Source: Escherichia phage vB_Eco_NicPhage. Taken from it: a stretch of 64,000 bases of DNA. Under the pieces are notes generated by a model. That model was not told the DNA's origin. It made no database searches and saw only the letters and a program-made list of their open reading frames with translations. Made by a program: the position numbers and the translations under genes. Position 1 is the first letter of the stretch. Each line of letters opens with the position of its first letter. Positions 3,061 through 20,795 of this stretch are shown piece by piece. The stretch lies in the sequence record OY726582. One strand, written 5' to 3'.

Positions 3061-3240
3061 TTATTCACCAATTAAAGTTTCAACAAAATTCACCAAAGCA
3101 TTCTGGCAAGCGTCAACCTGATTTTCATAAAAATCTCCGTTATCATTTACCGCATGATAAGCTACATCATTCAAATCTGAATCAGCTTCACGTAAGTCAC
3201 GGATAAGGTCCATCAATTTATTAGCTTGTTCACGGGTCAT
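3061..3240 (-). CDS. small hypothetical protein (59 aa)
   Basis: Not in track (under 60 aa); ATG at 3240 overlaps stop of an upstream 36-aa ORF (3237..3347, SD GGAGA); ends TAA just before 2526..3059 gene; downstream of an early promoter cassette. Confidence 0.3.
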   Translation of the reverse strand: MTREQANKLMDLIRDLREADSDLNDVAYHAVNDNGDFYENQVDACQNALVNFVETLIGE

Positions 3241-3365
3241 TTTACCATACTCGTTTCAATAAGATTCACTATGCCGTTTACCATGTTATAAGTAAACATC
3301 GGATAATTGTATTGTACCACAACATAAGCGATAAGCAAAAGTTTCATTTTGTTCTCCGTTTGTTT

Positions 3366-3406
3366 TGATAGGACTACTATAACATAGTCCTACCAAGATG
3401 TAAACT
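3366..3406 (-). promoter_or_regulatory. T4-type early promoter cassette with dyad GATAGGACTA...TAGTCCTA
   Basis: GTTTAC -35, about 17 bp spacer, TATAGT -10 inside 9-bp inverted repeat. Confidence 0.55.
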
Positions 3407-18679: not shown

Positions 18680-19306
18680 TTATTTACGGGTTTTTGCATA
18701 CTGAGCAGCGTCAGCAGCCAAACGACCTGCCTGACGAAGTTTTTCTTTAATCTCATCGTGAAGTGGTTGAGTGTACTTCAAACCTTCAATAGTCAAATAA
18801 AGACGATAAAGGTCTGGGGTATCAAGGTTGTTGATATGTTGGCCATTACGAAGACTGTTGAATTCACGAACGAGTGAAGATGTATCGGATTCAATATCAC
18901 GAACAAGCGAAGATAGTTGTTTATATTTTTTTTCCAGGCTAGAAGTATCAAACTTAAGAGCAGGAGCTTTAGGAGTTGCTTTTACTTCCGGCTTAGGCTC
19001 AGGTTTTGCTACTGCTTTAGGGGTCGCAGGTTTAGGAGTGGTAGGAGCAGGTTTTACTTTAGGCGAACCAGATTTAGCAGAAACACCACCACTAACAATA
19101 TCTTTGAATGCTTTAGAAGCTCTGTAATATTCTTTTTGGCTGGAAGTGTCGATACCGTACATGGCTTGAACGTTTTTGAAAAACTCTGTACTAGTTTTTG
19201 TACCAGAAATAGCATCGTAAGCAGCTTGCCACTTCTCTTTTGTCATACGTACACCGGCTTCGGTGATTACTTCCGTTTCGGCTAAAAATTCATTAAAAGT
19301 ATACAT
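18680..19306 (-). CDS. internal protein, IPIII-like (leader MYTFNEFLAE, Lys/Pro/Ala-rich core)
   Basis: 208 aa; IP-type N-terminal leader; size close to T4 IPIII; late promoter TATAAATA upstream. Confidence 0.55.
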   Translation of the reverse strand: MYTFNEFLAETEVITEAGVRMTKEKWQAAYDAISGTKTSTEFFKNVQAMYGIDTSSQKEYYRASKAFKDIVSGGVSAKSGSPKVKPAPTTPKPATPKAVAKPEPKPEVKATPKAPALKFDTSSLEKKYKQLSSLVRDIESDTSSLVREFNSLRNGQHINNLDTPDLYRLYLTIEGLKYTQPLHDEIKEKLRQAGRLAADAAQYAKTRK

Positions 19307-19341
19307 TGATGGTCCTTAGAAAGTAGGTTTATTGTTTACTA

Positions 19342-19349
19342 TATTTATA
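19342..19349 (-). promoter_or_regulatory. late promoter (TATAAATA) for IPIII-like gene
   Basis: Exact TATAAATA on minus strand about 35 nt upstream of ATG at 19306. Confidence 0.55.
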
Positions 19350-19350
19350 C

Positions 19351-19380
19351 AAAAAAGCCCCAACCTTTCGGAAGGGGCTA
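19351..19380 (-). terminator. rho-independent terminator at end of tRNA/stable-RNA unit
   Basis: Minus strand AGCCCC-TTCCGAAAGGTT-GGGGCT + TTTTTTG. Confidence 0.7.
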
Positions 19381-19680
19381 TATACCTTGTCGGGGTTTCC
19401 ACCTACTAGGTAAGTGTTTGTACGAAACGCCGGGATTTGAACCCGGTTATTATGTAGTTGACGCTACTCAATATTTTAAAAGGCCATATCTCGACCATAT
19501 CCGAACGTTCCGTCAAAAACGCTACTCGGCTTACGGCAAAGATATTTCCTCGAATCGATAATTCTGTGCGCCGTTTCTGCTGTGATGTAAGGGGATATTA
19601 ACAAATCATAAAGATTTATTAAGACCAGTCCTTACTCAGGGAACATCAGTCCGACGTCTTGCCGGTAGCGACCCGGCTTC
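19381..19680 (-). ncRNA. candidate small stable RNA(s) with tRNA-like T-arm (possible counterpart of T4 species 1/2 RNAs)
   Basis: About 300 bp with no ORF of 60 aa or more on either strand in a densely packed genome; flanked by tRNAs and a strong terminator; contains CCGGGTTCAAATCCCGG and repeated GAGTAGCGT. Confidence 0.3.
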
Positions 19681-20025
19681 TTATTTTGGCATATCGTCAA
19701 TTTGCTCTCGACGCCGACGCCATAGATTAATCGCTTCATAGGCACATTCTGCGTTTGGTATATGACGGCAATAATATAATGATTCGCGTTTCTGGAACCG
19801 ATGTTGCAACGGGATTTCGTTTAAAAGGTCTTTACGGTCAAAGTATTCAAAACTAGTTAACCCAGAACGGTTTTTAAGAAACTTCCAATGTCCGAATTCA
19901 TTTTGAAAATAAACATAATCAGCATGCTGATACAGCGAATTAATTAACCTATCGGAAATAACTGTTTCACGTTCGTTAAAATAAAACGTTAAGTCATGAA
20001 CTACCAGATAAATATTGCCTTTCAT
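19681..20025 (-). CDS. hypothetical protein between tRNA genes and putative stable-RNA region
   Basis: Track ORF 19681..20073 would overlap tRNA-Arg; ATG at 20025 (MKGNIYLVV) with SD GAGGAAAA chosen. Confidence 0.45.
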   Translation of the reverse strand: MKGNIYLVVHDLTFYFNERETVISDRLINSLYQHADYVYFQNEFGHWKFLKNRSGLTSFEYFDRKDLLNEIPLQHRFQKRESLYYCRHIPNAECAYEAINLWRRRREQIDDMPK

Positions 20026-20043
20026 ATTTTCCTCACTTGAAGT

Positions 20044-20120
<77 letters not shown>

Positions 20121-20123
20121 GAT

Positions 20124-20200
20124 TGGTGACCCAGACCAGATTCGAACTGGTAACCTTTCCCTTATGAGGGGACTGCTGCTAACCGTTGAGCTACAGGGCC
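20124..20200 (-). tRNA. tRNA with CAU anticodon (Ile2-type or Met)
   Basis: 77-nt cloverleaf: GGCCCTG acceptor, anticodon loop CUCAUAA, T-arm ACCAG-TTCGAAT-CTGGT, encoded CCA; 5' half resembles E. coli ileX as recalled. Confidence 0.75.
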
Positions 20201-20279
20201 TAAATAACTTTCTATTATGAAAGGCACTTTAGAGCACCTTTGGTAATAGAGGGTATGAATTAATAATAACACATAATTC

Positions 20280-20795
20280 TTAAAGCAAATCAATCATTTT
20301 AACAGTTGGCAAAACGATTTCTTCTTCAATATAAGCAAATTCAACACATTCAACTACACGCAAGAAATCATAATCATAATATTCAGAAGCATGACCAAGA
20401 ATACCAATGAGACCTTCTGATACCAAATATCCATTCTCATGGAACAGGTCGAATACACGCGATTCGTCTTCTTCAGATTTATTACCGAGGTCGACTTCAA
20501 TATCAAAGACCTTTTTAATGAATTCTGGATAAAGCTGGTCTGAGAACAGTCCTTCAACCAAGTATTCATAGATTAAAAGCGAACAATCACTGAATAGTGT
20601 ATTACCACAGTAACGTTCAGCTTTAGTGCTGGAATGACGGCTCTTAAATTTCTTTAAGAGATATTTAAACTGTTGGAGCTCATGCTCTTCTACACCAAAT
20701 AATGTTTTGGTTTTATAGTTGTCGCCGTCATTTTCCCAAGTAGTGACATCAATTACGTAACCTTTAGGAATTGTACTGCCTAAACAAATATTCAT
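20280..20795 (-). CDS. hypothetical acidic protein
   Basis: 171 aa ORF. Confidence 0.5.
   Translation of the reverse strand: MNICLGSTIPKGYVIDVTTWENDGDNYKTKTLFGVEEHELQQFKYLLKKFKSRHSSTKAERYCGNTLFSDCSLLIYEYLVEGLFSDQLYPEFIKKVFDIEVDLGNKSEEDESRVFDLFHENGYLVSEGLIGILGHASEYYDYDFLRVVECVEFAYIEEEIVLPTVKMIDLL

Follow-up and report, generated by a model that had tools for sequence, protein, structure and literature searches.

A segment aligned with the T4 small stable RNA genes rnaD and rnaC in a Mosigvirus-type phage carries a conserved four-way junction of tRNA topology

The window, by which we mean the whole stretch of 64,000 nucleotides of DNA that was analysed, comes from a T-even phage of the Mosigvirus type. 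When the 911 bases around the locus were used as a query, 749 phage records were matched; the best matches were Escherichia phage G53 (98%) and phage 55, assigned to Mosigvirus, and T4 was also among the matches. The local genes, both tRNA genes included, are carried on the minus strand, and the features of the locus are listed below in the 5′ to 3′ order of that strand.

20124-20200, minus strand: tRNA-Met(CAT), found by ARAGORN and by the Rfam tRNA model
20044-20120, minus strand: tRNA-Arg(TCT), found by ARAGORN and by the Rfam tRNA model
19681-20024, minus strand: 114-aa ORF between tRNA-Arg and rnaD, assigned to PHROG 3355 (phrog_3355), a PHROG of unknown function
19565-19684, minus strand: rnaD orthologue, about 120 nt, 85% identity to T4 rnaD over 120 nt, ends transferred from the T4 annotation
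19559-19564, minus strand: spacer GAAUUA between rnaD and rnaC, 6 nt, placed by alignment, stopping just 5′ of the presumed RNase P site
19421-19558, minus strand: rnaC orthologue, 138 nt, 97.1% identity to T4 rnaC (139 columns), ends transferred from the T4 annotation
19400-19416, minus strand: 3′ trailer hairpin CACUUAC-CUA-GUAGGUG, between rnaC and the terminator
19351-19378, minus strand: intrinsic terminator GCCCCUUCC-GAAA-GGUUGGGGC followed by U6, read from the sequence; a terminator is also given in the G53 and Kha5h records

Between 19307 and 19680, neither strand contains an ORF of 60 aa or more. This gap of 374 bp is the longest of its kind in the window, only 4.1% of which is left uncovered by such ORFs. 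The second-longest gap (3072-3404, 333 bp) is not noncoding; it is filled by ORFs that are slightly shorter than 60 aa, namely a 59-aa ORF (3061-3240, minus strand) and apparently another short one. An earlier reading of the locus, made from the sequence only, had described an ORF-free segment of about 300 bp at 19381-19680. The segment is real and correctly located, but its limits were drawn slightly too narrowly, because the gap measures 374 bp and the elements reach further, from the start of rnaD at about 19684 to the end of the trailer and terminator at 19351. The flanks named in that reading, namely a tRNA-Arg/tRNA-CAU pair, one ORF and a strong terminator, are all present on the minus strand.

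The two tRNAs (20044-20200) score 52 and 71 bits with the Rfam tRNA model. The tRNA cluster of the window is reduced to these two genes (Met-CAT and Arg-TCT), compared with 8 in T4 and 10 in Kha5h, and the pair of stable RNAs has been kept. For the 114-aa ORF at 19681-20024, searches of Pfam and the PDB gave no match, and the AlphaFold single-sequence model is unusable (pLDDT 47). The stop codon of this ORF overlaps the mapped 5′ end of rnaD. A homologue of the ORF is present and unannotated in Kha5h, and T4 does not have the ORF.

Downstream of rnaC, the trailer hairpin of T4 reads CACUUGC-CUUG-GCAGGUG, so that a G-C pair in T4 is replaced by an A-U pair here and the pairing is kept. The conserved trailer extends over approximately 40 nt (to 19381) and consists of this hairpin followed by the invariant GGUGGAA(A)CCCCGACAAGGU; an alternative fold is possible. 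The terminator at 19351-19378 is a GC-rich hairpin, and it was missed by a simple scanner because its stem contains two U.U mismatches. Right after it, at 19342-19349 on the minus strand, lies the T4 late-promoter consensus TATAAATA, which is upstream of a 208-aa ORF (18680-19306; PHROG 2280, unknown function). This motif occurs 19 times in the window, compared with 8.3 expected occurrences.

According to the T4 annotation (NC_000866), tRNA-Arg is directly followed by rnaD (71053-71171, 119 nt), then by 6 nt and then by rnaC (70908-71046, 139 nt). The window aligns with this region from end to end without rearrangement: the order is identical, the 6-nt spacer occurs in both, and the terminator follows. 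A search with the 351-bp region matched 800 phage records, 679 of them across at least 80% of its length, with T4 at 87.7%. Moreover, the GenBank label "rnaC; small stable RNA; species 1 RNA" is attached to the same sequence in Kha5h, RB3 and RB55, and in the window our covariance model R1 finds rnaC with 148 bits (E = 2e-36) as its sole match. Judged by this alignment, the segment consists of the orthologues of the T4 small stable RNAs rnaD (species 2) and rnaC (species 1). The sequence-only reading had suggested a counterpart of the T4 species 1 and 2 RNAs, and the end-to-end alignment with NC_000866 and the rnaC labels in relatives bear it out.

Both RNAs have been known as a class since the 1970s from work on T4. 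Species 1 RNA of T2, T4 and T6 was reportedly sequenced in that decade, and a dimeric rnaD-rnaC precursor is said to have served as an RNase P substrate. The T4 tRNA cluster is spanned by a primary transcript of approximately 1.75 kb, which terminates after the species I gene and gives rise to the eight tRNAs as well as to species I and II (PMC2330249). The T4 RNAC has been validated by northern blot, and both RNAs have been classed as late (PMC9697503). The role of rnaC and rnaD was given as unknown in papers from 2010, 2022 and 2025 (PMC3014915, PMC9697503, PMC12685909), and our literature search for a function or a published structure, whose scope did not include the RNA-sequencing papers of the 1970s, returned only statements of this kind.

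Standard detectors do not report the two RNAs. At the gathering threshold, nothing in the whole window passed Rfam 15 except the two tRNAs. When E values up to 10 were admitted for 19200-20300, the matches to the segment were at chance level (best E 1.4 to 8.4), and RF00005 had no match in 19381-19684 even at this setting. ARAGORN called only the two tRNAs at 20044-20200 in the window, with no tRNA or tmRNA in the segment. Rfam appears to hold no family for either rnaC or rnaD, and the negatives from Rfam and ARAGORN therefore carry no weight. The sequence-only reading had treated a blank from covariance models, combined with the detection of a short protein, as evidence against stable RNAs here; the Rfam and ARAGORN results are negative, yet this is misleading because a suitable Rfam model does not appear to exist. 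The same gap in Rfam accounts for the systematic mis-annotation of these RNAs in sequence records, in which pipelines leave rnaC and rnaD blank or label them as tRNA-Lys, tRNA-Met, tRNA-Phe or hypothetical proteins. In many GenBank records, "hypothetical protein" CDSs have been placed over rnaD and rnaC, and the 3′ part of rnaC (approximately 94 nt) is labelled as tRNA-Lys, tRNA-Met or tRNA-Phe in OQ599310 (L003:1178-1271), KJ101592, PQ824230 and OK210076; at locus L055:8491-8585, the tRNA is a prediction by ARAGORN.

To describe the fold of rnaC, copies were taken from Tequatro-, Mosig-, Moon-, Karam-, Teguna-, Gelderland- and Kanagawavirus records and from IMG/VR and metagenome contigs, and the covariance model added a distant Klebsiella-phage type that had been missed by BLAST of the window rnaC and rnaD against the fetched loci. 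The final set contains 22 distinct rnaC sequences, which come from enterobacterial T4-like phages of at least eight genera; the divergent homologues retain just the rnaC part of the segment. The elements of rnaC in the window are as follows.

19551-19557, minus strand: 5′ strand of the acceptor-like stem, CGAUUCG, paired with 19423-19429
19481-19550, minus strand: long arm of 70 nt at the D-arm position, with a 3-bp basal helix (AGG/CCU) and three stacked helices
19448-19473, minus strand: second hairpin, at the anticodon-arm position, with a stem of about 10 bp and a 6-nt loop
19430-19446, minus strand: T arm CCGGG-UUCAAAU-CCCGG, with a 5-bp stem and two covarying pairs
19423-19429, minus strand: 3′ strand of the acceptor-like stem, CGUUUCG, followed by U19422 (discriminator position) and then by A-C-A-A

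In an RNAalifold consensus of 11 sequences, 25 of the 46 pairs show compensatory double changes, and the single-sequence minimum free energy structure of the window rnaC is identical to the consensus fold (z = -3.6). In the final alignment of the 22 distinct sequences, which was fitted to the covariance model, a procedure that favours nested helices and leaves the kissing loops outside the model, 95.8% of the cells are paired, compared with 36-45% when the partners are slid by 1-3 columns. Double changes are found in 33 of the 51 pairs, and none of 500 shuffles reaches any of these measures. The rnaC RNA is a conserved, covarying four-way junction with the topology of a tRNA.

The acceptor-like stem consists of 7 bp formed by the two ends of the RNA. 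Its third pair changes from A-U to G-C, and its two U.U mismatches, which occur in this phage and in T4, are U-A and C-G in Tegunavirus. This stem and the T stem (helices 1 and 8) are both 100% paired and covarying. Double compensatory changes affect 19 of the 22 stem pairs of helices 3-5 in the long arm, and in the Gelderland-, Kanagawa- and Klebsiella-type copies and in the Moonvirus phage NM4.3 the arm is made of unrelated sequence of retained length and shape. The single-stranded linker reads UUUUAAAA. In the stem of the second hairpin, 9 of 10 pairs show double changes. The T arm begins one nucleotide after this hairpin and runs directly into the 3′ strand of the terminal stem, and its 7-nt loop fits the tRNA T-loop consensus. 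The junction contains the invariant residues UCGRUYCGAGGA (5′ end), GGCC (preceding the linker), AAAAU, and UAAC (preceding the T arm). As a speculation, the invariant, unpaired GG before CCU (about 19484-19485) could act like G18/G19 of a tRNA against the T loop. A T-arm-like sequence followed by an acceptor-like strand had already been noticed in the sequence-only reading, and both are present (19430-19446, minus strand; CGTTTCG, 19423-19429). A distance of over 100 nt between the T arm and the acceptor 5′ strand (CGATTCG, 19551-19557), which is located upstream of it, explains why no cloverleaf had been closed in that reading.

The two large arms of rnaC are connected by a pairing between their loops.

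19511-19516, minus strand: kissing loop 1, UUGACG, at the apex of the long arm, paired with 19458-19463
19458-19463, minus strand: kissing loop 2, CGUCAA, the loop of the second hairpin and the exact complement of UUGACG

This helix is paired in all 22 distinct rnaC sequences (100%), compared with 16-51% in slid registers, and it contains three co-varying loop pairs. Two independent compensatory switches occur, to UUGAUG/CAUCAA in Tegunavirus and to UUGGCG/CGCCAA in the Klebsiella-phage type; the variants are confined to these two lineages. An intramolecular loop-loop pairing is thus conserved in rnaC and leaves no free anticodon-type loop.

A repeat with copies about 60 bp apart, also pointed out in the sequence-only reading, is present: the minus strand has two copies of GAGTAGCGT, one at 19519-19527 and one at 19461-19469, 58 nt apart. 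The GAGUAGCGU copies form the 5′ flanks of both kissing loops in the T4-type arm only. We considered GAGUAGCGU as a functional repeat and rejected it on account of this restriction to the T4-type arm and of the C-G pair, closing each kissing loop, in which the copies end. Because the copies end in the loop-closing pair, the repeat is probably a by-product.

Other genera carry rnaC in a tRNA slot: its neighbours in Moon, EnA02 (Karamvirus), CF-SP2 and Melville (Gelderlandvirus) are tRNA-Met or tRNA-Trp on one side and tRNA-Gly on the other, and the spacers measure from a few nucleotides to roughly a dozen. Directly 5′ of the first acceptor pair stands a U in all sequences but one, and in 19 homologues the 5′ flank ends in A before this U(-1). 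The 3′ flank reads U-N-C-A-A in 19 of 19 homologues examined, and the Klebsiella-phage type encodes U-CCA at this end. According to the T4 annotation, rnaC begins at the U one nucleotide before the first acceptor pair and ends in U-A, not in CCA; on the basis of these ends, its processing may differ from that of a standard tRNA.

A pattern scan of 185,579 bacterial and archaeal species, each represented by one genome, gave 0 matches, and blastn against 5,426 E. coli genomes found no copy. Two pattern scans of IMG/VR and one of metagenomes, followed by the covariance model, found no copy beyond T4-like enterobacterial phages. In contigs of the Klebsiella-phage type (L018:12329-12393; L016:1869-1933, minus strand), a conserved spacer of 65 nt lies between tRNA-Met and rnaC, at the position that rnaD has in T4-type phages; a GGGGUGG...CCCACCUC hairpin can form in this spacer, which may represent a further small RNA.

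The rnaD RNA is less well defined by covariation, and its range is limited to T4/RB69-type phages. It begins with one small hairpin.

19661-19677, minus strand: rnaD 5′ hairpin GCCGG-GUCGCUA-CCGGC, with an invariant loop (16 sequences)

The closing pair of this hairpin covaries (A-U to G-C). The remainder contains a long irregular hairpin closed by an invariant helix (CGUCG/CGGCG in this phage), and its apical part of approximately 50 nt has been swapped for unrelated hairpins in two lineages. The fold consists mainly of invariant pairs with limited covariation, and its z-scores are weak outside this phage. An examination of rnaD for tRNA-like features revealed none that was convincing, and the 3′ CACCA of T4 is not conserved. 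A possible pairing between the rnaD loop GUCGCUA and UAGCG of rnaC was spotted by eye, but those rnaC residues sit within stems. During adaptation to the host ECOR34, three independent lines of phage BW1 convergently acquired an SNP in rnaD (PMC12685909), which is a hint of a host-specific function and no more.

Three other explanations of the segment have to be weighed against this identification. According to one of them, the 3′ part of the segment would be a tRNA gene, genuine or degenerate, that has a long variable arm, and the sequence-only reading had also offered a degenerate tRNA as its alternative. Several observations favour this explanation: perfect pairing is possible between an internal CGGAACG (19506-19512) and the 3′ CGUUUCG beside the T arm, the linker holds CUUUUAA, which is the sequence of the tRNA-Lys anticodon loop, a tRNA-Lys of 94 nt is annotated there in phage 55, ARAGORN gives a 95-nt tRNA-Met on the L055 homologue, and PG7, id4496 and KKP_3262 carry tRNA-Met or tRNA-Phe labels. 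However, ARAGORN and the Rfam tRNA model are negative on the window copy, the amino acid varies between records as would be expected of artefacts, the supposed anticodon likewise changes, and T4 species 1 is annotated with 139 nt, not approximately 94 nt. The internal acceptor strand is A.C-mismatched in Moon and Karamvirus and unpaired in the Tegunavirus and Klebsiella-phage types, whereas the covariation sits in the terminal acceptor stem and in the full 138-nt fold. We therefore rejected a 94-nt tRNA built on the internal CGGAACG acceptor stem, the pairing of which fails in other genera, as well as mimicry of tRNA-Lys by the linker CUUUUAA, because this heptamer is not conserved. A degenerate tRNA likewise agrees poorly with an RNA that has no 7-nt anticodon loop, no ARAGORN or Rfam tRNA match and a fold that covaries over all of its 138 nt. 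The tRNA explanation is already largely refuted, and we regard it as very improbable. A still smaller chance, close to negligible, is left to the idea that the segment encodes one or more small proteins of 36-47 aa on either strand. Four ORFs of this size with TTG starts overlap the segment, and many GenBank records place "hypothetical protein" CDSs over it, whereas every one of the small ORFs is frameshifted, interrupted by a stop codon or without a start codon in T4, L033, L021, L022 and Kha5h, and the substitutions follow compensatory base pairing rather than codons. The coding potential of the four ORFs was rejected for this loss of frame, start or stop in close relatives, and the segment is noncoding.

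It is somewhat less improbable, and nevertheless unlikely in our view, that the segment is merely a cis-acting 3′ untranslated or processing region, which provides spacers, a nuclease entry site or 3′ protection and has no RNA function of its own. Deletions of the T4 tRNA region are viable, in T4-type phages the segment closes the operon at its 3′ side and directly precedes the terminator, and 50 years have passed without a function being found, all of which would suit a cis-acting region. Against this, rnaC lies inside the tRNA array and not at its end in other genera, in at least eight genera its stems covary around loop and junction residues that do not change, and the sequence of its long arm has been replaced wholesale with its length and kissing loop preserved. 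Furthermore, a discrete RNA species accumulates in T4, and the convergent rnaD SNP of three independent BW1 lines on ECOR34 (PMC12685909) also counts against a cis-acting region.

We consider it highly probable that, taken as a whole, the best explanation is the one in which the segment carries the orthologues of rnaD and rnaC, rnaC has tRNA topology, the RNAs would be processed by the tRNA machinery, and the role, with low certainty, may be that of a mimic. By analogy with T4, rnaD and rnaC would be made as the 3′ end of a transcript that also contains tRNA-Met, tRNA-Arg and the 114-aa ORF, and this transcript would stop at the terminator at 19351-19378. Because rnaC has an acceptor/T minihelix and occupies a tRNA slot in other genera, we infer that it is excised by tRNA-processing enzymes, and the best inference is that rnaC would be a tRNA mimic matured by these enzymes. 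Judging from its anatomy, host RNase P would cut at the 5′ side, the conserved U-N-C-A tail would be trimmed by 3′ exonucleases and possibly undergo CCA repair, and rnaD would be released by the same cleavages. With low certainty, we suggest that the mature rnaC may be a non-decoding tRNA mimic that occupies a tRNA-binding factor of the host or the phage.

A more specific proposal, to which we assign a small probability, is that rnaC could be a "self-locked" tRNA mimic, acting as a decoy for a host factor that acts on tRNA or regulating how tRNAs mature, while rnaD would adjust this activity in a host-specific manner, at which the BW1 SNP hints. If this is true, then the acceptor/T face would be kept for tRNA-processing or tRNA-binding proteins, the anticodon-side loop would be sequestered by the kissing interaction, and the target of the decoy or sponge could be, for example, a tRNA-targeting defence nuclease. 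The presence of the two RNAs in this phage is ordinary, as all T4/RB69-type phages carry rnaD and rnaC. These RNAs have been known for approximately 50 years without a function. Their conservation extends over at least eight genera, and the bacterial genomes searched contain no copy. What is new here is a covariation-backed model, comprising the acceptor/T minihelix, the 6-bp kissing loop and the invariant GGCC and A-rich junction, which is directly testable by mutation and biochemistry.

As in T4, rnaD and rnaC are placed downstream of tRNA-Arg in the tRNA cluster and are followed by a terminator. In contrast to T4, where rnaD begins 2 nt past tRNA-Arg, the 114-aa ORF intervenes here. The 3′ end of rnaD is CACAG in this phage and CACCA in T4, the rnaC linker is shorter by one A than that of T4, and the T loop is UUCAAAU instead of UUCGAAU.

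With a canonical tRNA, rnaC shares the 7-bp terminal stem stacked on a 5-bp T stem, the 7-nt UUCRAAU loop, the four-way junction topology, the location in a tRNA array with short spacers similar to those between tRNAs, and the U-N-C-A 3′ tail. Unlike in a tRNA, the loop at the anticodon position has 6 nt, not 7, and is paired to another loop, an arm of 70 nt replaces the D arm, and a linker of 7-12 nt stands where a tRNA has 1 nt; residues 8-9 are missing. When rnaC is held against the usual tRNA criteria, a full cloverleaf and recognition by detectors are both absent, and an acceptor/T arm with a UUCRANU loop is present. The tmRNA differs from rnaC in having a tag reading frame and in being much larger; ARAGORN found no tmRNA, and neither tmRNA nor YrlA (RF02553) had an Rfam match on the segment at E values up to 10. 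In YrlA, the RNA termini form a Ro-binding stem and not an acceptor stem. Acceptor/T-arm modules of non-decoding RNAs are handled by tRNA-processing enzymes. Like the tRNA-like domain of tmRNA and like YrlA, rnaC has a module of the acceptor/T-arm type grafted on a non-tRNA body, and it is in this acceptor/T-arm half that rnaC is tRNA-like.
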